Below the pieces are notes generated by a model that ran no database searches, was not told the origin of the DNA, and saw only the letters and a list, made by a program, of their open reading frames with translations. Of a stretch of 64,000 bases of DNA, positions 2,090 through 11,892 are shown in pieces. The stretch's first letter is position 1; the number at the start of each line of letters is the position of its first letter. Origin of the DNA: Patescibacteria group bacterium (GTDB lineage Bacteria; Patescibacteriota; SICC01); assembly GCA_040902515.1 (NCBI GenBank), contig JBBDXB010000006.1, positions 130,219 through 194,218 of the forward strand, in the 5' to 3' direction. The position numbers and the translations under genes are program-made.

Positions 2090-2815
2090 CTACCTATGGG
2101 CCGAGGCTGACCACCTGATCCAGAGTGACCCGGGCAAGCTCGGCCAATCCGCCACACGATCCGGATACCGTCCCGACTCGACCGAGTCGTACACGTTGAA
2201 CGGGTCCCACCGTTCGGCCCGGCGGGTCTGCGGAGACCGGCGGCCGAGCACACAGAAATGGAGATGGTCACCCGTGTACGTTGTGTACGCCTCGCCGCTC
2301 GACCAGTCTTCGTATGAACGCCGGCCGATTCCCATGCCGGTCATACCGGCCCGGCCGATCCGCTCGCCGGCTGATACCCGCTTGGCGCGGATGCTCCTGC
2401 CGTACTCGCTGACCGGCGCGGCGAGATGGGTCGGCATCAGGTCGCCGCGCTCGTCGCTCGTCGGCGCATAGTACGGGATGCCTCCCTCGACTGAATCGAG
2501 GTGCGCGTACTGCGTGTAACGCCCGGGCTTGTGCCAGATCTGCACCACTAGCCCGACGCCGAACCAGATCGGCTCGCCATCATGCCGCCGCGGTTCGTCG
2601 CCGTCCCTGAGTTGGTATTCCTGGAAGGTGGCGATCGCCAGGCCGCCGGCGGCGGCCAGCACCGGCGTGCCCCTGGATGCGTCGAAGTCAATGGCTCCGT
2701 GGCGTTCGACCCCGTGGACCCGCTTCTCCGTCTCCGAATACTCCCAGCCGGTCGCGATCTCTGGCTCAAACCCTGCTTCGAAGAGCGGGCTTAGGAATGG
2801 CTTGGGTGCGGGCAT
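2090..2815 (-). CDS. M23 family (LytM) metallopeptidase
   Basis: HGAIDFDA...GTPVLAAAGG...YAHLDSV...GDHLHF: HxxxD and HxH zinc motifs of peptidase M23. Confidence 0.8.
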   Translation of the reverse strand: MPAPKPFLSPLFEAGFEPEIATGWEYSETEKRVHGVERHGAIDFDASRGTPVLAAAGGLAIATFQEYQLRDGDEPRRHDGEPIWFGVGLVVQIWHKPGRYTQYAHLDSVEGGIPYYAPTSDERGDLMPTHLAAPVSEYGRSIRAKRVSAGERIGRAGMTGMGIGRRSYEDWSSGEAYTTYTGDHLHFCVLGRRSPQTRRAERWDPFNVYDSVESGRYPDRVADWPSLPGSLWIRWSASAHR

Positions 2816-3033
2816 GGCTCACGACATTGTATCATCGTGGCCATTTGTCCGATTGCTTCGTTGCACCCATCGATTACGAGCCCTTTCGACCTGAACTTCC
2901 CAGGTCTCGTCAGGCGCTATGCGCAAGGGCACTTCACGCTGGGTCTGGGTCTCTTGCGAGTCAGTCTTGGTGGACGAATCCAAGCGCGTGAAGTTATGTA
3001 CGTCCGCGGGTCAAACATCAGCCGTCGGTGTGG

Positions 3034-3285
3034 CTATCGCCGTGGTGGTCGGGACTGCCGTGCACGAGAGCCCATGTAGGAGAGGAAAATCGCCGCAAGG
3101 AAAGTGAGGGCGAGTGGCCACATGTACACCGCATCGTCTGTCCTCATCAATAGGCTGATGAAGACAGCACCAAGCACGGCGTTTGCGATGCCCACAATCG
3201 TAATCAAGCTCATGACGTACTTCTCCTTCGTTTCGGAGTCAGGACAATACTGCTGTGAAAGAGCCAGGGGCGGAGCTCCTTGCAC
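3034..3285 (-). CDS. small hypothetical membrane protein
   Basis: Two predicted TM helices. Lies in a lower-GC patch. The start is probably internal (MSLITIVG). Weak support. Confidence 0.3.
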   Translation of the reverse strand: MQGAPPLALSQQYCPDSETKEKYVMSLITIVGIANAVLGAVFISLLMRTDDAVYMWPLALTFLAAIFLSYMGSRARQSRPPRR

Positions 3286-3446
3286 TATGCAATGCTCCGG
3301 GGGCTAGAGCCTATTTGAAATCTTCGAGGGTTTTTTCGAGCTCATCCGGTTTGATAACCTGGCCGATGCCATAGTAGCTCATTACGTCCGATTCCAAAGC
3401 GGTGTAATCGATTCCGAAACGTGGCATATCCCAGGCATATGGATCA

Positions 3447-3965
3447 TCACCTAGAAGCGTACGCGGAACGCTTGGCCGGCTTTCTTGACTGAGCCTGCTT
3501 AGCGCGCTCGTTATTCCGAATCATCCGCTTAGCCTGAGTCACAATCGCCCGGTCCTCAGTGTAGTCGAGAAAATCGAATCTTTTCTTGATGTCTATCCAG
3601 CGCGCCTCGGATATTTCACGATTCTTCTTCCGCAACGTGCCGCCTTTATATTTCATTAAGAACCAGTGCACATCAGCGAGCCTCTGTTGCTTGCCTTTTC
3701 GTGAGGGCAGATAGGAGTACCGGCTGATGTACTTCACCAAATCGGCGTTAACCCCTGTTTCTTCCTTAACCTCCCGGATCGCTGTCTTCTGGATATCTTC
3801 GTCTCGTTCGACGTGCCCCTTGGGCAGACTCCAATCATTCATTTGGTTTCGGTGGACCACCAACAGCTCGTACGATCCGTTTCGTTTGCGATATACAATT
3901 CCGCCAGCGGAGTGCTCTAGCTTAATTGAGACCTTTTTTGAATCTATCTGTCGTAGTGCCCTCAT
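3447..3965 (-). CDS. NUDIX hydrolase
   Basis: Nudix box GHVERDEDIQKTAIREVKEETG. Noticeably lower GC than the bulk of the window. Confidence 0.8.
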   Translation of the reverse strand: MRALRQIDSKKVSIKLEHSAGGIVYRKRNGSYELLVVHRNQMNDWSLPKGHVERDEDIQKTAIREVKEETGVNADLVKYISRYSYLPSRKGKQQRLADVHWFLMKYKGGTLRKKNREISEARWIDIKKRFDFLDYTEDRAIVTQAKRMIRNNERAKQAQSRKPAKRSAYASR

Positions 3966-4303
3966 AGACTCAAATATAGCTGAGGCGACTCTTCAACGGG
4001 CCAGAATGGCCTTTTATCTCATTCTGCGCAGCTTCGTGCAGTCCTGGCTCTACGGCCTGCAACATTTCCCAATCTTGCGGCTCAAGTAACACCAACATCG
4101 TCGTGATCGTCTTTTCAGTGTCATCCGGAACGTGGATGCGGTTTCGCGCAGCTTCGCTTCTTGCGTAATCTTCAATGCCTAACACGGTTCTTCATCTCTG
4201 CCACAATCAAGCAAATCTCTAAACCAAACGTTGATGCTCTTAGAGGAACTGAGTTGTAGTGACGGGCCTTTAGGCACGGAATGGGACAGTCTAAAAGGCA
4301 CCG

Positions 4304-4951
4304 CTAGCTCCTGGGAATGAATCGCTTGGCCGCGTCGTCCTTCAGCTGCACCGATTGCTCCAGGTCGAATGTATCATTCAGCGCCTGCTTCACGAGCCAG
4401 TAGCCCGCGCGATACCCGGCCCACTTGCCGAACGGACCGTCGAAGAACCACTCCGCGTGGTTGTATTGCTCGTTATCCCACTGCTGCTCGATCTGCCGCC
4501 AGACTTTCGGGGCGAGAGCCGGTCCGGTAATCCACGGCGCCTGCCAGCCGGACTGGATCCCCGCGAACCAGCACGCCATACCCTCGGTCACCAACGCCCG
4601 CCCCAGCGTTTGGCCGTATCCCCCGTTCTGCCAGCGGGTCAGGTGGTGGAGCTCATGGGCAATGGCGTCAATTAACGGCGGCTCGTCCGTCGGCCATTCT
4701 TCGACCGCAACAAACGCTTCGTGCGCATTAGGGGAATATCCGCCCGGATACCTACCCTCGATCGTCGCTTCCGAAATATCCCTGACGTAAAGCGTCTGCC
4801 GATCGTCCTTAATCTGAGGAGCAATCGCCTTCCAAATATCGGCTACTTTCGTGGGAAGCTTCGGCTGGGTGTCACCCTGCAAATTCACACACAAAGCCAG
4901 CAAGACCTTGCCCTGCGCCGAAAAGTCCATGGTCGTATATGAATCAGGCAC
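4304..4951 (-). CDS. putative Zn-dependent peptidase (HExxH, DUF2268-like)
   Basis: 215 aa with AHELHH (HExxH) and a predicted-Zn-protease-like architecture. Same strand and about 200 bp downstream of the RiPP precursor gene. Confidence 0.5.
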   Translation of the reverse strand: MPDSYTTMDFSAQGKVLLALCVNLQGDTQPKLPTKVADIWKAIAPQIKDDRQTLYVRDISEATIEGRYPGGYSPNAHEAFVAVEEWPTDEPPLIDAIAHELHHLTRWQNGGYGQTLGRALVTEGMACWFAGIQSGWQAPWITGPALAPKVWRQIEQQWDNEQYNHAEWFFDGPFGKWAGYRAGYWLVKQALNDTFDLEQSVQLKDDAAKRFIPRS

Positions 4952-5155
4952 ATGTACAAGATAGACCTAGTGCACAGCAAATAAAAACAGCCACACCTAA
5001 TGGGTAGCTGTTCCCGTTTCGACCGAAACTTCCTCGGTCTCATCAGACGCTAAGCGTGACGGGCCCGACATGATCCTGTGATGTTGCGTAAGCAACCAGG
5101 ACCATGCCGGGTATTAGCGAGGTTAGCTAGAATAAGCTCGCTATTTCTCCCTTGT

Positions 5156-5401
5156 TCAGGGCGCGAGCGGTGACGATGGAACAGTTCCGACACCGAGCGG
5201 TGCTCGACTGCATCGGGAGCTCTGCGCGAATCCACTCGATTGACCAGACCCCTGGCAGCCACCGCAGTTGCCGCCACCGCAGTTGCCACCGCAGTTCGGG
5301 CCACCGCACATCGGCCCAGGCTCTCCACCGCCACAACTGCCATTGCCGGCTATCCCGGCACGAGTAGCGGGGCGCTGACGAACGCTGACTGTAATATCCA
5401 T
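5156..5401 (-). CDS. TOMM/LAP precursor peptide (Cys/Gly-rich, heterocycloanthracin-like core)
   Basis: RBS AAGGAGG lies 5 nt upstream of ATG (5399-5401); a GTG at 5405-5407 is an alternative start. Peptide: MDITVSVRQRPATRAGIAGNGS-CGGGEPGPMCGGPNCGGNCGGGNCGGCQGSGQSSG-FAQSSRCSRAPLGVGTVPSSPLAP. It starts 7-13 nt after the YcaO stop. Confidence 0.7.
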   Translation of the reverse strand: MDITVSVRQRPATRAGIAGNGSCGGGEPGPMCGGPNCGGNCGGGNCGGCQGSGQSSGFAQSSRCSRAPLGVGTVPSSPLAP

Positions 5402-5413
5402 GTTCACCTCCTT

Positions 5414-7234
5414 TCAGGCGAACGGATGAGGTGTGGTGGGCCCGTAGTCAGAGAAGTCAATTCTCCTGCCCAACACGCGATCATCGATTTGTATTGTTTC
5501 GCCGGCGCGCGACATTCCGTACGGCTCCTGATCATAGCCAAAGGTAATCGGCAAGAGTCCAGGGATGAACGCCCGGACGACATGGAGACCCTCAGAAAGC
5601 GGCAGCGTCAAATCGACTACCACCGGCTCCGAGACCACCGAACCGATCTGCGACAACTTGCCCACGTGGCCATGGACATCCTGCAGATCAGTCAGTTCCG
5701 TTGAGCTGTGAAGGAACGCGGCACCTTCAGCAACCGTGCTGTCAGTATACAGCTTCTGATGGTCAGTCGCCGAATGCACATCCTCCAACTGTATCTCTTC
5801 TTCTGGCTGGAAGAGATCACCACCCCACAAGACCGAACCGGCCTCGTAAAGCGCTTTTCGAGCAGCGCTCTCTGCGTCAAAGGCACACCCACTACCGAGA
5901 ATGAGTGTCCGCTTGGTATGGACGGCGCAGAGAATCACCGGCAACGTCTCGAGCGTCAGATTGACGAAATCAGCACTGTAGCCGACTTGGTTCAACCTCT
6001 CTAGCCACGGGCTGAACTCCTCTGGAAGTGATTCCGCACTGATGCGCTCACGCGAAACCCGTTGCAGCCAGGTCCACATATACGCATCACGCTCAATGAC
6101 CTCAAAAACCGCTCGCTTTATCGCCTCGTCGTAAGACGTATGTGCGGCAATGCCCGAGCTATTCGAAGCCGCTAGACTACTTCCAGGAAACGGGAACAGC
6201 GTCAGCTCGGCGGGGACCCAGCGAGCGGAACCACTCAACGTCTTCCCCTCGATCCAATGGTACGGACGTGAGGGCTCGTATTTGTGCAGAGATAAGTTGG
6301 ACCGGTACTGACGCTCATTGAACTTAATCAACGATCGAGGGTCGCACACCGGAGCTGGCAACTCACCCTCGGTTCCGGATTGGAGCTGACGCTCCGCTAC
6401 CTCCCCACTTACGAAACGCTCAGTAGCCTCGGCATAGGCGATGACGCGAGCCTCAGCTGCCGTGGATGCCAGCCCCATACAGGCCGCGTCCTTATGATCC
6501 TCAGCGAAAAGCAGGTTCGGACACGCATACTTGCTACTGCAGAGGTGAACGCCCAGCGACCGCGAAAGGTCACTCGTATTCACAACCGTGTACCGAACGA
6601 TGCCCAACCGGGAATCATTTTGCCACCCTCGCAGAACTTTGTTTCGCTCTATCGAGGTGACTTTGAGATCAGGAAGGTCGACTACGTGAACCATATCCTC
6701 ATCCCATTCCTGCGACTGCTCAACCACCTGCGCCAAGAGGGCTCTCGGGGGCTGGTCACCGACCACGGTGACTTCCTCGCTTCCGGCACAATAGCCGTAG
6801 GCATACAACCGCTCCTCCGGCTCGATGTTGGCGATGAACGCCCTCACTGCGCGTTTGGTAAGCGCAGCATCGGCTCCGACTGGCAACACCAGCACCTCCT
6901 CGGCCGTAGTAACGAACCGAGAGACCTTGTTATTGCCCACCAGCCGAACTATGGCGTCTCCGAGGGGGGTCACCTCATCCGGCAGTGGTTCTTCGGAGCT
7001 GCGACCTTCCCGGATGAATCCCGCATCGAGTAGCGCTGTGGTTAACTGAGCTTCTTTCTGGGAATCAAGTCCGATCGACTGTAATGCGTCAAACCCTGAT
7101 TTGAAGAGTTTCAGCATCTTCATCTTGCTGTCATGAGGGAGGTTGAACTTCAGTCGACTAGTCGACTCTGGTGAAATGAACACCAAACCCTCCCCCGTCA
7201 CACCGCACAGGTGCGACAACGGCAGGATATACAT
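5414..7234 (-). CDS. YcaO-domain cyclodehydratase (TOMM 'D' protein) with about 230-aa N-terminal extension
   Basis: Hallmark YcaO motifs: SNSSGIAAHTSYDEAIKRAVFEVIERDAYMW and GSGCAFDAESAARKALYEAGS. 606 aa. The start sits 1 nt after the SagB stop, suggesting translational coupling. Confidence 0.85.
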   Translation of the reverse strand: MYILPLSHLCGVTGEGLVFISPESTSRLKFNLPHDSKMKMLKLFKSGFDALQSIGLDSQKEAQLTTALLDAGFIREGRSSEEPLPDEVTPLGDAIVRLVGNNKVSRFVTTAEEVLVLPVGADAALTKRAVRAFIANIEPEERLYAYGYCAGSEEVTVVGDQPPRALLAQVVEQSQEWDEDMVHVVDLPDLKVTSIERNKVLRGWQNDSRLGIVRYTVVNTSDLSRSLGVHLCSSKYACPNLLFAEDHKDAACMGLASTAAEARVIAYAEATERFVSGEVAERQLQSGTEGELPAPVCDPRSLIKFNERQYRSNLSLHKYEPSRPYHWIEGKTLSGSARWVPAELTLFPFPGSSLAASNSSGIAAHTSYDEAIKRAVFEVIERDAYMWTWLQRVSRERISAESLPEEFSPWLERLNQVGYSADFVNLTLETLPVILCAVHTKRTLILGSGCAFDAESAARKALYEAGSVLWGGDLFQPEEEIQLEDVHSATDHQKLYTDSTVAEGAAFLHSSTELTDLQDVHGHVGKLSQIGSVVSEPVVVDLTLPLSEGLHVVRAFIPGLLPITFGYDQEPYGMSRAGETIQIDDRVLGRRIDFSDYGPTTPHPFA

Positions 7235-7235
7235 A

Positions 7236-8186
7236 TCAACCTCCAGTAATGATGGTTAGTAATGGAACAACCTCCTCGGACAGCTCGAGAAATTCCTGAG
7301 TCTCTCGGTCGAGGAACCCCCCGATCGGGCGCATCTTCACACCCAGCTCCGCTGCAGCCAGCATGGCATTCTGCATCGCCGCACCAGCCTCGAGGAGTAC
7401 GTACCGATAGGCCCGGTTACCATACTTCTGGGCACTTCGGTCCAGGTCGGCCGAGATAAAAATTACAACCTGGCCCTGACTGAGCAGCTCGTCAGTCGGT
7501 TCGGCGTTCAGCATGATGGTGAAAACATCCTGCTTGGCCGGGTTGACCGACTGAAGCATCCCGGTCTCTACGTTGAACCACCAGAGACCCCGATTCAGGC
7601 CGTCGATCTGACCGTGTGCGGCCACGTGGATGACTAGCGGATAAAGAGCGCCGCCAGAAGGGACAGTCCGGTGTCCGCTCTCGGTAAACCCGTACGTGGC
7701 ACGGACGATTCCAGATAGCGATTGAAGCGTCAGCTTGGTTCCAGAGTCCTCCGGATACGCCGACGACCTTTGCGCAAGCAGACGCGCCAGCTCTAGGCCT
7801 GAATCGGGAGTCTCCAGCACCTTGCCGGCATTACTCGGCTCCCAACGAGGCGCCGCCGTGATGGCAGCAATTTCCTCATCGGTACGAGGCTCAAAGAACG
7901 GATTTTCTCCGTTTGAGCTGGCCCGGTGAAAGAAGCGGAACGCCTGAGTGCAATCAGCGACCACACCCAACTGCTTAAGCTTTTTAAGAAGCTCGAGAAT
8001 ATCCTCTCGCTCCCCAGGCCACTGACTGAGAATATCATCCGACATCCTGGTTCCGTCGCAAAGCTCCAGAACCTGCTCAGCCAAACCGACCTCGTTGCCC
8101 TCGAGCACTACCTCTACTGCTCCCGACTGAAGGACAAGCTTGCCGTCTTCATGCCGGACTACCGCCAGAAGCAGCGGCCGATTCAT
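7236..8186 (-). CDS. SagB-type FMN-dependent dehydrogenase (TOMM 'B' protein, nitroreductase fold)
   Basis: PSGGALYP signature of SagB/McbC-type dehydrogenases and a nitroreductase-like C-terminus (RYVLLEAGAAMQNAMLAAAELGVKMRPIGGF). Strong RBS AAGGAGG before the ATG. Confidence 0.85.
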   Translation of the reverse strand: MNRPLLLAVVRHEDGKLVLQSGAVEVVLEGNEVGLAEQVLELCDGTRMSDDILSQWPGEREDILELLKKLKQLGVVADCTQAFRFFHRASSNGENPFFEPRTDEEIAAITAAPRWEPSNAGKVLETPDSGLELARLLAQRSSAYPEDSGTKLTLQSLSGIVRATYGFTESGHRTVPSGGALYPLVIHVAAHGQIDGLNRGLWWFNVETGMLQSVNPAKQDVFTIMLNAEPTDELLSQGQVVIFISADLDRSAQKYGNRAYRYVLLEAGAAMQNAMLAAAELGVKMRPIGGFLDRETQEFLELSEEVVPLLTIITGG

Positions 8187-8224
8187 AATGACCTCCTTGT
8201 TCTATTTCCTATGAATTAAAGAAC

Positions 8225-8262
8225 AGCGGAGAATTATAGCACTTTCCCAGCCAGGACAATTG
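8225..8262 (-). promoter_or_regulatory. sigma70-like extended -10 promoter of the SagB-YcaO-precursor operon
   Basis: Minus strand reads ...ccaattgtcctggctgggaaagTGcTATAATtctccgctg... (extended -10 TGnTATAAT at 8233-8241, weak -35 TTGTCC) about 45 nt upstream of the SagB RBS and ATG. Confidence 0.5.
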
Positions 8263-8356
8263 GTACATTCCGACGAACTCACCAACCTCGGTCGGGTTGG
8301 GAACTGGCTTTTCCGTGCTATTGCGAGGTTTTCGCGCATCGGTTCCAGTCTGTGGC

Positions 8357-9181
8357 TCACTCACTAAAGTACCGGACTGCTGCTTCTGGATCCTCCGCAC
8401 GCATGAGATGCTCACCGATCAGGACTCCGTCCACGCCGGCGTTACGGAGTTCCGACAAAAGCGCCCGCGACGCTTCGTCCACCTGGAAGCCGCTTTCCGT
8501 TACCACCAACGTCCCGTCAGGAACCTCGCCGAGCAACGTTGCCGTGAGTCCTGTGTCGGTCGTGAGTTCCGGGTCGCGCAGATTCCGGTTGTTCACTCCG
8601 ATGATCTTGGGTCGAACGGCCACGGCGCGTTCCAGTTCTTCGGCGTCGTGTACTTCGACTAGGACATCAAGCCCGATTGAGTCCGCATACTCACTCAGTC
8701 GCGAAAGCTCATCGTCTTCAAGCGCTCCCACGATCAGCAATGCGGCATCGGCGCCGGCTGCCTTTGCCTCAAGAAGCTGATAGTGGTCAGTGATGAAGTC
8801 CTTCCGCAACAAGGGCAGGTCGGTCACCTCCCGGCCTTTCCGGAGGTGATCGAGCGAACCCCCGAAACGGGTCTCCTCCGTGAGTAGCGAAATAGCCCGA
8901 GCCCCGCCCCATTCGTAGGCGGCAATGGTCTCCACGACTCCCCAGTCTTCCCGAATCATCCCTCTGCTTGGAGATCGACGCTTGTGCTCCGCAATGACCG
9001 ACAACCCGGGACGACCCAGGGCGTCCGCGAAAGACCCTTCCCGATTCCGCCAGCGCTCCGCCTTGGCGAACAGCTCCGACTCCCCGACCTCGCGTTTTCG
9101 GACCATTGCTTGTTCGCGCGACGATGCCGAGAGTTTCTCAAGTATGGGGACGGGCTTTTCCATGGCAAACCAGCGTATCAC
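8357..9181 (-). CDS. trpC: indole-3-glycerol phosphate synthase
   Basis: IAEHKRRSPSRG...LLRKDF...GADAALLI...VLVEVH...IGVNNRNL: classic IGPS motifs. Confidence 0.85.
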   Translation of the reverse strand: MIRWFAMEKPVPILEKLSASSREQAMVRKREVGESELFAKAERWRNREGSFADALGRPGLSVIAEHKRRSPSRGMIREDWGVVETIAAYEWGGARAISLLTEETRFGGSLDHLRKGREVTDLPLLRKDFITDHYQLLEAKAAGADAALLIVGALEDDELSRLSEYADSIGLDVLVEVHDAEELERAVAVRPKIIGVNNRNLRDPELTTDTGLTATLLGEVPDGTLVVTESGFQVDEASRALLSELRNAGVDGVLIGEHLMRAEDPEAAVRYFSE

Positions 9182-9400
9182 GCCCCGCCGGTAACTCGAC
9201 AGATATCCAGATTAGTAATGCTCCCCAGTCGGGTCTGGAACCTTTACGGCTAGACCATTGAAACGTTTTCAGTGTCTCACAATTCGAACCGATCAGGCAT
9301 GGAATGGGACAAATGGAACGCCATGATTGCTGAGTGAGGTGAGATACGAGCAAGTTCGCCAGTCTCAGAAAATCGACTATGGCCTAGACCCTGCTCACCT

Positions 9401-9430
9401 TTTACACAAAACACTCCCTAACTGTATAAT
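9401..9430 (+). promoter_or_regulatory. strong sigma70-like promoter giving a near-leaderless helicase transcript
   Basis: -35 TTTACA (9401-9406), 18-nt spacer, extended -10 TGTATAAT (9423-9430). The ATG is at 9439, only about 8 nt after the -10, so there is no room for an SD. Confidence 0.5.
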
Positions 9431-9438
9431 AGCGCGCT

Positions 9439-11892
9439 ATGAACAAGTCAGAGCCACGAGAACATGAAGTTGATTATACCGAGGTTTTTACCGATAGTCT
9501 TATTAATCCCGAAGTAGCGCCGGAATTAGACCAGGTACAGGAAGATTGTTTAAGAGAAATCGCATACGCACGTGATCAAGGGGAGCAGCGTGCATTAGTT
9601 GTGCTCGCATCCGGCATGGGTAAAACAAGAATTGCCGCGAAAGACGTGTCTAATTTCTTTATCGAAAACCCTAATAGTCGCGTATTGTACCTGTGCCACC
9701 AGAACGAGATACTCAGGCAGGCTGAGCAAGAATTTCGCGGAGTCCTCGGATCCCCTCATAGCTACGGCCAGTTTGCCGGACATGAAAAGGAGTTTGATGA
9801 AGTCAACTGCCTATTCGCTTCTTTCCAGACTATGCGAGATTGGAAGGATGCGTTCCTACCGGAAGAGTTTGACTACATTATAGTCGACGAGGGTCATCAC
9901 AGCGCTGCCAAAACATATCAACCAGTCTTGGAATATTTTAATCCGCGGTTCGCCCTCGGTTTAACTGCGACCCCTGATCGTGGCGATCTCAAGGACATCC
10001 GAGCGATTTTCGGACCTGAACGTTACTCTATGCCACTTGAAGAGGCATTAGCAGAAGGACACCTGGCTCGAATAGACTACCGTCTAATGGCTGATGAAAT
10101 CGATTGGGATGAAGTCCGGAAAGCAGCAGAAGGCCATGTAACAATGGCAGATCTTAATCGACGAGTATTCATTGAACACCGAGATGAAGAAATCGTCGGA
10201 GTAATAGACAAACACCGGGCAGAGCTAGATGGGGCAAAAGTCATGGTCTTCTGCCCTTCAATCGCTTACTGCGATCGTTTGGCGGAAGTAATGCCCGATG
10301 CCGTGACAATTCATTCGGCATTATCGGCCGGAGAGCAGCGTTTGAAACTTGAAGATTTTCGAAGTGGTCTAATCAATACAGTAGTAACTGTTGATAAATT
10401 CAATGAGGGCATAGACATCCCCGATGCGAATTTAGTTGTTTTTCTACGATCCACCGCGTCTAAGAACATATTCATCCAACAGCTCGGACGTGGCTTACGC
10501 AAGACACCTGAAAAGCAAGGGGTGCGTATTCTTGATTTTGTAAATAATCTTGAGCGCATGGAGCTCATCGACGAACTATGGCGAGATGTCACCGAACGAT
10601 ACCGGCGCATGCACGGCACAGCAGAACAAGAAGCGCTCGTTGTGGATATTGGAACCGTAAGCTTCGAAGAAATCAACAAAGACCTTCAGGAGGTTTTGGA
10701 ACTGCTCAGACAGGGTTACACCAAGGAAAAACTTGTGGGCCAACTGCTCGCTTTAGCCGAAGAGTTAGGTAAATCACCATCAATCCCAGATATTCGACGA
10801 GCCCAAGAAGAGAAGCGCTGCGCAAGCCCGGGCACGTTCGCCAGGCATTTTGGCTCTTATAACAAGGCGCTCGAAGCGGCCGGTCTGGAGTCACGTGCGA
10901 AGCCACCTTCATACACAACTGAAGAACTAGTCCAACAGCTCACTAACCTCGCTAATGAGCTGGGGGTTACTCCCCTGGTCAGCGATATCGATAGCGCACA
11001 TGAAGAAGGAATATGTGCTAGTACCGATGTCTTTCGGTCACGCTTTGGCTCACTACGACAAGCTCGCGAGGCGGCTGAACTAGAGGCGACTGAGTGGAGA
11101 AGGTACTCAGATCACGAGTTGCTGGAACAACTTACTCAGCTTACGGAGGAACTCGGTCATGCCCCTACGAGTAGTGACATTAACCGAGCTTTCGATGAAG
11201 GTAGGACTGCAAGTATCGACACCTTTCATCGTCGGTTCGGGACACTGGCAGAAGCCCACAAGATTGCGAGGGTCTTCGATAAACGCACTCACCGACTCAG
11301 TGATCAGCAACTACTTAGTCAGCTCAAGCAGTTGCATGAAGTAGAAGGGCGTCCGCTAAACCGCGTTGACCTCGCTGAAGCACGTCGTGAAGGTCGAGGC
11401 CCGAGTCCCCAATTGCTTGTGAAACGATTTGGCTCGACACCGGAGGCGCTACGTCGAGCAGGTATTCCTCTACGCATCCCGGCACACCGGAAATTTGGAA
11501 CAACAGAGTTCACCGAGGAAGATCTTATCCAGCGACTCGTGGCCTATAGCGAGGAGTTGGGACGAGTCCCAAGTCAAAGCGAGTTGGTTGATGCGTCAAA
11601 ACAAGGAAAGTGTCCCAATGCTTCGGTCTTCGCCAGACACTTTGGAACATACAATAAAGCAGTTAAGGCAGCTGGCCTGAAACCAGTTGCGGAGAAACCA
11701 AGTTACACAGACGATGAGCTGCTTGAGCAGTTGCGTAGCCTTGCAAAAGAACTTGGTTCTATTCCCACTAAGAACCAAGTCAAGGAACTTTCTAAACGGG
11801 GAAAGTGCGCGACCAGCACAACTTTTATTAAAAGGTTCGGCACATTTGAAGAAGCGCTACAACTCGCAGACATTCATCTGAAAGACTCTTGA
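9439..11892 (+). CDS. SF2 DExH-box helicase (ResIII-like) fused to 7 tandem homing-endonuclease-associated repeats (HEAR)
   Basis: Walker A LASGMGKT, motif II DEGHH, and helicase C-terminal motifs (QQLGRGLR). These are followed by seven roughly 55-aa repeats of the form E(E/Q)LLxQLxxLAxELGxxP...D...G.....T....FGSxxxALxxAGL. Lower GC than the surrounding genes. Confidence 0.8.
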   Translation: MNKSEPREHEVDYTEVFTDSLINPEVAPELDQVQEDCLREIAYARDQGEQRALVVLASGMGKTRIAAKDVSNFFIENPNSRVLYLCHQNEILRQAEQEFRGVLGSPHSYGQFAGHEKEFDEVNCLFASFQTMRDWKDAFLPEEFDYIIVDEGHHSAAKTYQPVLEYFNPRFALGLTATPDRGDLKDIRAIFGPERYSMPLEEALAEGHLARIDYRLMADEIDWDEVRKAAEGHVTMADLNRRVFIEHRDEEIVGVIDKHRAELDGAKVMVFCPSIAYCDRLAEVMPDAVTIHSALSAGEQRLKLEDFRSGLINTVVTVDKFNEGIDIPDANLVVFLRSTASKNIFIQQLGRGLRKTPEKQGVRILDFVNNLERMELIDELWRDVTERYRRMHGTAEQEALVVDIGTVSFEEINKDLQEVLELLRQGYTKEKLVGQLLALAEELGKSPSIPDIRRAQEEKRCASPGTFARHFGSYNKALEAAGLESRAKPPSYTTEELVQQLTNLANELGVTPLVSDIDSAHEEGICASTDVFRSRFGSLRQAREAAELEATEWRRYSDHELLEQLTQLTEELGHAPTSSDINRAFDEGRTASIDTFHRRFGTLAEAHKIARVFDKRTHRLSDQQLLSQLKQLHEVEGRPLNRVDLAEARREGRGPSPQLLVKRFGSTPEALRRAGIPLRIPAHRKFGTTEFTEEDLIQRLVAYSEELGRVPSQSELVDASKQGKCPNASVFARHFGTYNKAVKAAGLKPVAEKPSYTDDELLEQLRSLAKELGSIPTKNQVKELSKRGKCATSTTFIKRFGTFEEALQLADIHLKDS

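Follow-up and report, generated by a model that had tools for sequence, protein, structure and literature searches.

The gene at positions 5414–7234 on the minus strand of a 64,000-nucleotide stretch from a Patescibacteria group bacterium (contig JBBDXB010000006.1 of assembly GCA_040902515.1, positions 130,219 to 194,218; referred to here as the window and numbered from its first nucleotide) encodes a predicted YcaO-family cyclodehydratase of 606 amino acids. On a modest balance of the evidence, we consider it to be the cyclodehydratase of a minimal operon for azole-containing peptides that are made on the ribosome and modified after translation (RiPPs) of the linear azol(in)e-containing peptide (LAP) or thiazole/oxazole-modified microcin (TOMM) type, in which the N-terminal extension of the enzyme serves as the counterpart of the C protein in cis. 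Because this extension appears to consist of a docking winged helix and a reduced, divergent accessory domain, the protein is interpreted as a miniaturised and highly divergent C-D fusion. As read from the sequence, the operon comprises, in order, a SagB-type dehydrogenase with a RiPP recognition element (RRE), the YcaO protein with its RRE-like and small alpha/beta domains, a precursor peptide, a predicted hammerhead ribozyme, and a DUF2268 metalloprotease.

The catalytic domain and C-terminal tail of the YcaO protein (aa 253–606; 5417–6478, minus strand) were delimited by Pfam YcaO (PF02624), alignment with Protein Data Bank (PDB) chains, and Foldseek. The PF02624 match covers aa 253–560 with an E value of 1e-49 and 170 bits, compared with a gathering cut-off of 25.7. 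TIGR03604 (SagD family) matches aa 254–576 at 175.3 bits, under the NCBI trusted cut-off of 219.25, and we classify the protein from these profiles as a divergent member of the TIGR03604 family. The motifs AEATER (aa 267–273) and EVIERD (aa 378–383) lie in this domain; Ala268, Glu269, Ala270, Glu272, and Arg273 as well as Glu378, Glu381, Arg382, and Asp383 are invariant in the family alignment and align with the YcaO domain of TruD. In published YcaO structures, the ExxER and ExxERD motifs bind ATP and Mg2+. The protein ends in a proline-rich GPTTPHPFA, of which Pro599, Pro602, His603, Pro604, and Phe605 are invariant in the family alignment, and a PHPF[A/P/S] ending occurs in about 70 of 80 family members. 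Such a proline-rich C-terminus is characteristic of azoline-forming YcaOs (PMC8442711). Together with the conserved acidic motifs, it points to azoline-type chemistry. A sequence search of PDB chains with the whole protein gave matches confined to the YcaO domain (TruD aa 414–744, MusD, and LynD), and LynD also matches the predicted YcaO structure in Foldseek with an E value of 1.6e-25. The NCBI record of the identical protein, encoded on a 638-kb contig, reads [quoted passage not shown], where MAG denotes a metagenome-assembled genome.

The original prediction, made from the window alone, described a YcaO with an N-terminal extension of about 230 residues, and the length is borne out: about 245 residues precede the YcaO domain without a family match. 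Specifically, no Pfam or NCBIfam model matched aa 1–245 even at E<=10 when nine family members were scanned. Eight full-length homologues of 607–627 aa (33–76% identity) align with the protein from end to end. A hidden Markov model of the extension searched against 1.84 billion representative proteins matched the N-terminal part of 102 proteins, almost all of 575–627 aa, and the extension was seen only fused to YcaO (~100 metagenomic protein clusters). One short match that seemed to be a stand-alone copy of the module (P0088/L045) proved, when viewed in its contig, to be a frameshifted or truncated YcaO gene. Among the species-representative genomes, full-length members were found in Thermoleophilia MAGs.

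The first part of the extension (aa ~5–78; 7001–7222, minus strand) is predicted to be an RRE-like winged-helix domain. AlphaFold2 with the family alignment gave a full-length model with a predicted local distance difference test score (pLDDT) of 83 and a predicted template-modelling score (pTM) of 0.85, in which the N-terminal blocks scored 76–96; the N-terminus modelled alone gave a pLDDT of 85. Within aa 9–71, the predicted elements follow one another as beta-beta-beta-alpha-alpha-alpha, as they do in an RRE winged helix, with strands at 9–12, 16–20, and 25–29 and helices at 34–46 and 58–71 (pLDDT 76–92). By hhalign, aa ~5–80 were aligned with the RRE of the neighbouring SagB-type protein with a probability of 53% from 9 sequences and 83% (E value of 8.8e-6) from 25 sequences. 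Foldseek matched the N-terminal module to the RRE of PbtF (8t19; probability 0.96, TM score 0.57), and PDB sequence searches with the 9- and 25-sequence profiles returned generic winged helices at aa 30–100. It is thus reasonably supported, by modelling and profile comparison, that aa ~5–80 form an RRE-like winged helix homologous to the SagB RRE. The alternative that the whole extension is a duplicated, degenerate RRE-SagB unit was rejected, since the RRE part alone aligns. The proposal of a fused, truncated docking or RRE module is therefore supported for this domain; for aa 88–245, an E1-like nature finds no backing from sequence profiles, and the fold matches are weak.

The remainder of the extension (aa 88–245; 6500–6973, minus strand) is predicted by AlphaFold2 to be a compact alpha/beta domain and is marked by invariant alignment columns. 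The invariant motifs of the module are T110-A-E-E113-x-L-x-x-P118, R128-x-x-R-A-F133, R142-x-x-A-Y146, G159-D160-x-P162, and R209-L210, so that the most conserved residues of the extension are concentrated in aa 110–162 and 209–210. The pLDDT is 84–96 for aa 88–200, and the values for aa 201–245 drop to 44–63 once the YcaO domain is removed from the model, which indicates that the last ~40 residues of the module probably pack on the YcaO domain. In a Foldseek search with the N-terminus-only model, the best matches were all proteins that combine an RRE with an E1-like domain, namely LynD (E value of 3.6e-4, probability 0.92), McbB (0.03), TruD, MusD, and MccB (0.09), followed in rank by the pure E1-like proteins ThiF (0.1) and UBA5. 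In fold search, the modelled alpha/beta domain thus weakly resembles the E1-like module of LynD, McbB, and MccB.

Consistent with the original prediction, no separate E1-like partner was found. Pfam and NCBIfam scans of the substantial open reading frames (ORFs) at 1–29.5 kb of the window detected no ThiF, E1-like, Ocin-ThiF, or TfuA domain, with 5.4 kb of sequence available from the YcaO gene's 3' side to the window end, and no E1-like, Ocin-ThiF, or TfuA partner gene is conserved in the homologous loci. The further claim that the operon contains no RRE carrier did not hold. The abutting gene (7236–8186, minus strand) encodes a SagB-type FMN dehydrogenase of 316 aa, as shown by matches to PF00881 (5e-19; nitroreductase domain at aa 150–312) and TIGR03605 (104.6 bits, above the cut-off of 78.4). 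Its sequence relatives in the PDB are McbC, BmdC, and CyaGox, and its Lys254-Tyr255 pair is invariant in the alignment; the Lys-Tyr pair is catalytic in McbC (PMC8442711). The N-terminal part (aa ~1–78; 7953–8186, minus strand) is a PqqD-like winged helix, whose profile matches the RRE regions of MusD (aa 22–82, E value of 0.0038) and LynD (aa 21–85, E value of 0.0092). Pfam PqqD matched this segment in four of nine members, and PaaA-like_N matched at 4e-4. The first ~80 residues of the dehydrogenase therefore provide an RRE besides the one predicted in the YcaO protein. The stop codon of SagB and the start codon of YcaO are 1 nt apart, which suggests translational coupling, and a SagB-like gene adjoins the module-bearing YcaO gene in all related loci compared.

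Directly 3' of the YcaO gene, a small ORF (5156–5401, minus strand) with a GGAGG ribosome-binding site 5 nt 5' of its ATG encodes a candidate precursor peptide of 81 aa, MDITVSVRQRPATRAGIAGNGSCGGGEPGPMCGGPNCGGNCGGGNCGGCQGSGQSSGFAQSSRCSRAPLGVGTVPSSPLAP, with the Cys-Gly-rich core SCGGGEPGPMCGGPNCGGNCGGGNCGGC. Two overlapping ORFs at 5050–5343 and 5127–5336 on the same strand were dismissed, being other reading frames of the repetitive DNA that codes for Cys and Gly. Equivalent small ORFs lie 3' of the YcaO gene in almost all related loci, among them L001 (9876–10051), L003 (two copies, 6364–6558 and 6649–6861), L004, L005 (three copies, 2566–3250), L006, and L008–L011 (directly 3' of the YcaO genes in these last four). 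In this family, a very short leader at the N-terminus, M-x-[KR]-F-x-[IV]-x-V..R, is paired with a C-terminal follower, [LV]-S-P-L-x-x; the core between these conserved ends is hypervariable, contains Cys in most loci, and in L001 includes TDGARSD twice. Comparison of the precursor ORFs with the NCBIfam precursor families gave no family match, and TIGR03601 matched the window precursor only with an E value of 0.4, so the likeness to heterocycloanthracin and microcin B17 cores is compositional only. Judged by these sequence comparisons, the precursor peptides are a new, previously uncurated family. L008 and L009, from the same Thermoleophilaceae MAG, are two paralogous cassettes of SagB, module-YcaO, and precursor genes, whose precursors are related yet distinct (cores PCDFTNC and PCDLTNC). 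Across the related loci, the SagB-like gene, the small precursor ORF, and sometimes a DUF2268 gene are the only conserved neighbours.

The DUF2268-family gene (4304–4951, minus strand; PF10026 at 8e-20) encodes a predicted zinc metalloprotease with an HELHH motif of the HExxH type, and the protein is a candidate leader or follower peptidase. Homologues lie 3' of the YcaO gene in L006 and L007 and 3' of single-chain SagB-YcaO fusions in L012, L017, and L019; proteins of ~281 aa 3' of such fusions, at first taken as a possible discrete form of the module, are these proteases. The spacer that separates the DUF2268 gene from the precursor gene contains a predicted type III hammerhead ribozyme (Rfam RF00008) at 5011–5065 on the minus strand, with a complete CUGAUGA/GAAA core, three helices of which stem I has 4 bp, and predicted cleavage 3' of C5058 (GUC|A). 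A scan over 5.5 kb with Rfam missed it, and the match appeared in a narrow scan of 111 nt, where it is end to end with 34.4 bits (E value of 2.3e-6), compared with a gathering threshold of 48.5; the copy in L001 (10106–10160, plus strand) reached 36.2 bits (E value of 1.4e-4 in 22.6 kb), which is also under this threshold. The low score is probably due to the short stem I. Further copies were located on the plus strand in L006 (~3478–3536), where the cleavage triplet is GUU instead of the GUC of the window, and L007 (~3272–3330). The alignment of the copies has 14 pairs with 98% of cells paired and compensatory changes in all three helices. Cleavage by this ribozyme would split the transcript of the dehydrogenase, YcaO, and precursor genes from that of the protease. 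Such an element within a RiPP operon, if genuine, would be an unusual means to uncouple the expression of precursor and protease. Searches of the literature for DUF2268 together with YcaO, and for Patescibacteria together with either YcaO or hammerhead, retrieved nothing relevant.

From the conserved domain architecture, the neighbouring genes, and the family of precursors, all of which were observed, we infer a pathway that assigns roles to both RREs, the alpha/beta domain, and the protease. The N-terminal beta-strand motif of the precursor, F-x-[IV]-x-V..R, would dock on an RRE by strand addition. The YcaO domain with ATP would then cyclodehydrate Cys residues, and possibly also Ser and Thr, of the Cys-Gly-rich core to azolines, and the SagB-type enzyme, recruited via its own RRE, would oxidise the azolines to azoles. 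The DUF2268 protease may trim the leader, the follower, or both. The fused module would take on the functions of a C protein in cis, by docking the substrate and supporting the YcaO domain.

Several observations weigh against equating the module with a C protein. The Foldseek matches to RRE and E1-like proteins are weak, with TM scores of 0.14–0.26 and rmsd values of 12–21 Å, and the alpha/beta domain, at ~110–160 aa, falls short of the size that a complete E1 fold needs. TIGR03603, TIGR03882, and PF00899 gave no match at E<=10 to the N-termini of the nine members, hhalign of the module with the TIGR03882-type C domains of Paenibacillus-type fusions gave a probability of <1%, and PDB sequence searches with the single protein and the 9- and 25-sequence profiles returned nothing for aa 88–245. 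The precursor core of L011 has no Cys and contains RAFQTD repeated three times. Finally, the closest YcaO relatives outside the family lack the module, so that a C-like module is evidently not required in this clade. These relatives are single chains of 717–1021 aa that combine RRE-SagB and YcaO and have no E1-like domain. They share ~30% identity in the YcaO domain and were the closest in a scan of species-representative genomes, where they occur in Saccharibacteria, Parcubacteria, and Proteobacteria.

The fused relatives form a large clade of RRE-SagB-YcaO proteins (L013, L014, L016, L017, L019–L023, L025, L027, L028, L032, L035, L036, L042, and L044), an architecture for which no description was found in the literature searched. 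The alignment of the window SagB with the L019 fusion spans the entire SagB protein, together with its RRE, and aa 1–319 of the fusion (E value of 1e-36), and aa 247–576 of the window YcaO align with aa 360–701 of the same protein (E value of 3e-33); the L019 protein is therefore a fusion without the 245-aa module. In the fusions, the RRE segment is kept at the N-terminus, and a linker of ~40 aa between SagB and YcaO stands in place of the module. The gene in L011 had been considered as a triple fusion of SagB, module, and YcaO, which was rejected because the in-frame stretch on its 5' side is not SagB. Some fusions are followed on the 3' side by short Cys-rich precursors, such as that at 2553–2783 of L016 with the core CGCDCECDSDCQCDCGCGCNCDCAGDCG.

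The comparison with these fusions bears on an alternative in which the module, rather than being an E1-like C domain that has degenerated, is a distinct accessory, an RRE joined to a novel alpha/beta domain, which arose in this clade for another task: to read the SPL follower while the SagB RRE reads the N-terminal leader, or to dock the separately encoded SagB enzyme onto the YcaO. We consider this a serious possibility, of lower probability than the C-D reading. In a set of 45 sequences, made up of 44 loci plus the window, the module is confined to those in which SagB and YcaO are distinct genes that abut (the window, L001–L011, and L018) and is absent from the 717–1021-aa fusions. The precursors beside fusions (L016 with two copies, L020, and L022) keep a leader, [FL]-S-[FW]-x-V-[TS]..R, and have no C-terminal SPL, whereas the SPL follower is found in the module-bearing loci. 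These two correlations suggest that the module may read the follower or may dock the dehydrogenase, and they are in line with the lack of sequence homology to E1-like domains and with the module's own invariant set (TAEE..P, RAF, R..AY, GD.P, and RL). However, the loci fall into two clades, so that the correlations, on about 12 versus 4 loci that are not phylogenetically independent, are weak evidence, and the best Foldseek matches of the module remain proteins with an RRE and an E1-like domain. A more far-reaching version, which we regard as rather doubtful as a whole, would add the RRE with its novel alpha/beta domain, as a fourth and hitherto unrecognised kind, to the E1-like, Ocin-ThiF, and TfuA partner modules of YcaO enzymes. 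Here, the SagB RRE would read the leader, the YcaO RRE would read the SPL follower or clamp the dehydrogenase, and the hammerhead would cut the operon transcript after the precursor gene and before the protease gene, in a Patescibacteria bacterium with a reduced genome.

It is improbable that the YcaO acts as a stand-alone enzyme as in bottromycin biosynthesis, or performs thioamide, amidine, or peptidase chemistry, with an extension that is structural or serves oligomerisation. The module-free SagB-YcaO fusions, the TIGR03604 score under the trusted cut-off, the Cys-free precursor of L011, and the ATP-dependent peptidase activity of the structural relative MusD (title of PDB entry 7u58) would accord with it. 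Against these stand the azoline dehydrogenase with the Lys-Tyr pair that always adjoins, the proline-rich C-terminus of the azoline type, the Cys-rich cores in most loci, and the absence of TfuA among the ORFs scanned at 1–29.5 kb; in addition, the RRE-like fold and the strong conservation of the module favour a substrate-related role. A long N-terminus produced by a mis-called start, or by an assembly or frameshift error that joined two genes, has the lack of database domain matches as its only support and is refuted by the equal length and end-to-end alignment across independent assemblies from several sources, by the start codon abutting the stop codon of the 5' gene in several independent loci, and by the packing of the module on the YcaO domain in the AlphaFold2 model (pTM 0.85).

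For the preferred reading as a divergent C-D fusion, the description of the protein as a non-standard single-polypeptide cyclodehydratase goes too far. Roughly half of the TOMM clusters have C-D fusions, and "short" fusions whose C domain is hardly recognisable are known from haloazolisins and truncated heterocycloanthracin enzymes (PMC4603692); fused cyclodehydratases with C domains that are short or hard to recognise are also described in PMC9953058. The nearest architectural parallels are LynD, TruD, PatD, and MusD, in which one chain likewise carries an N-terminal winged-helix RRE (predicted in the present protein), an accessory domain, and a C-terminal YcaO; the YcaO domains of LynD, TruD, and MusD are homologous to that of the window. 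The partner dehydrogenase resembles the cyanobactin oxidases ThcOx and CyaGox, RRE-fused SagB-type enzymes, in bearing its own RRE, so that heterocyclase and oxidase could each engage the precursor independently, and the precursors share with those of cyanobactins the conserved flanks and variable core. Unlike TruD, in which the YcaO alignment begins at residue ~414, the present protein has an extension of only ~245 aa, and unlike the cyanobactin heterocyclases it has no E1-like domain detectable by sequence and only weak fold similarity to one. The PatA and PatG proteases of cyanobactin clusters are absent, a DUF2268 metalloprotease being present instead, and the hosts are Patescibacteria and Thermoleophilia rather than cyanobacteria.

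In size, the protein resembles the short-C fusions of the heterocycloanthracin type, which have ~600–650 aa with ~250 aa before the YcaO domain (in L024, TIGR03882 at aa 67–234 and YcaO from aa 263). The heterocycloanthracin enzymes have no RRE and depend on a separate F protein (PMC4603692), whereas an RRE-like domain is present here and no F protein is found nearby. A strongly acidic composition, as expected of haloarchaeal (haloazolisin) relatives, was found in none of the 102 module-profile proteins, which were judged by composition, with no haloarchaeal YcaO sequence aligned to them. Microcin B17 McbBCD offers another parallel in its Gly/Cys-rich precursor core, in the related activities of the dehydrogenase (B) and YcaO (D) components, and in the occurrence of McbB among the weak fold matches of the module. 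In that system, the E1-like McbB is a protein of its own and assembles with McbC and McbD into an octameric complex, while the present operon has no separate C gene and both of its enzymes carry their own RRE (that of YcaO being predicted). With the SagB-YcaO fusions the operon shares the type of leader motif, the DUF2268 neighbour, and full-length SagB homology, and it differs from them in the ~245-aa module and the SPL follower. The lack of a recognisable E1-like, Ocin-ThiF, or TfuA gene nearby recalls the stand-alone YcaOs (BotC/BotCD), from which the family is separated by the conserved 245-aa N-terminal module, the RRE-like fold, and the adjoining azoline dehydrogenase. On the sequences compared, the family is set apart by a small accessory domain without sequence identity to known ones, the lack of a match to mining models, new precursors, and different hosts.

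The operon adjoins genes for tryptophan biosynthesis: trpC lies at 8357–9181 (minus strand) in the window, and trpD, trpG, and trpE lie at 2112–5094 of L001, which is 43% identical. This adjacency points to conserved synteny of trp and RiPP genes among these Patescibacteria, and it is of note to find a trp pathway in genomes as reduced as these. The gene at 9439–11892 on the plus strand, divergent from trpC, encodes a ResIII/DEAD helicase of 817 aa with six repeats of the HNH_repeat type, which is associated with homing endonucleases; it lies in a region with a GC content of 0.49 compared with ~0.62 elsewhere and may have been horizontally acquired. A scan of 4000–9500 for promoters and terminators yielded nothing informative.

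Genome-mining pipelines sort YcaO clusters by their partner domains (E1-like, ThiF-like, and TfuA). The present family matches none of these models and so would be filed as "stand-alone" or ignored. The natural pairs of split enzymes with the module and fused enzymes without it make the contribution of the accessory domain a testable question. Few natural products are known from Patescibacteria, whose genomes are very small. The analysis defines a compact, putative three-enzyme azole-peptide pathway in Patescibacteria and Thermoleophilia, and the genes of the window would represent an operon for an antibiotic-like peptide in a bacterium that is uncultured and ultra-small.

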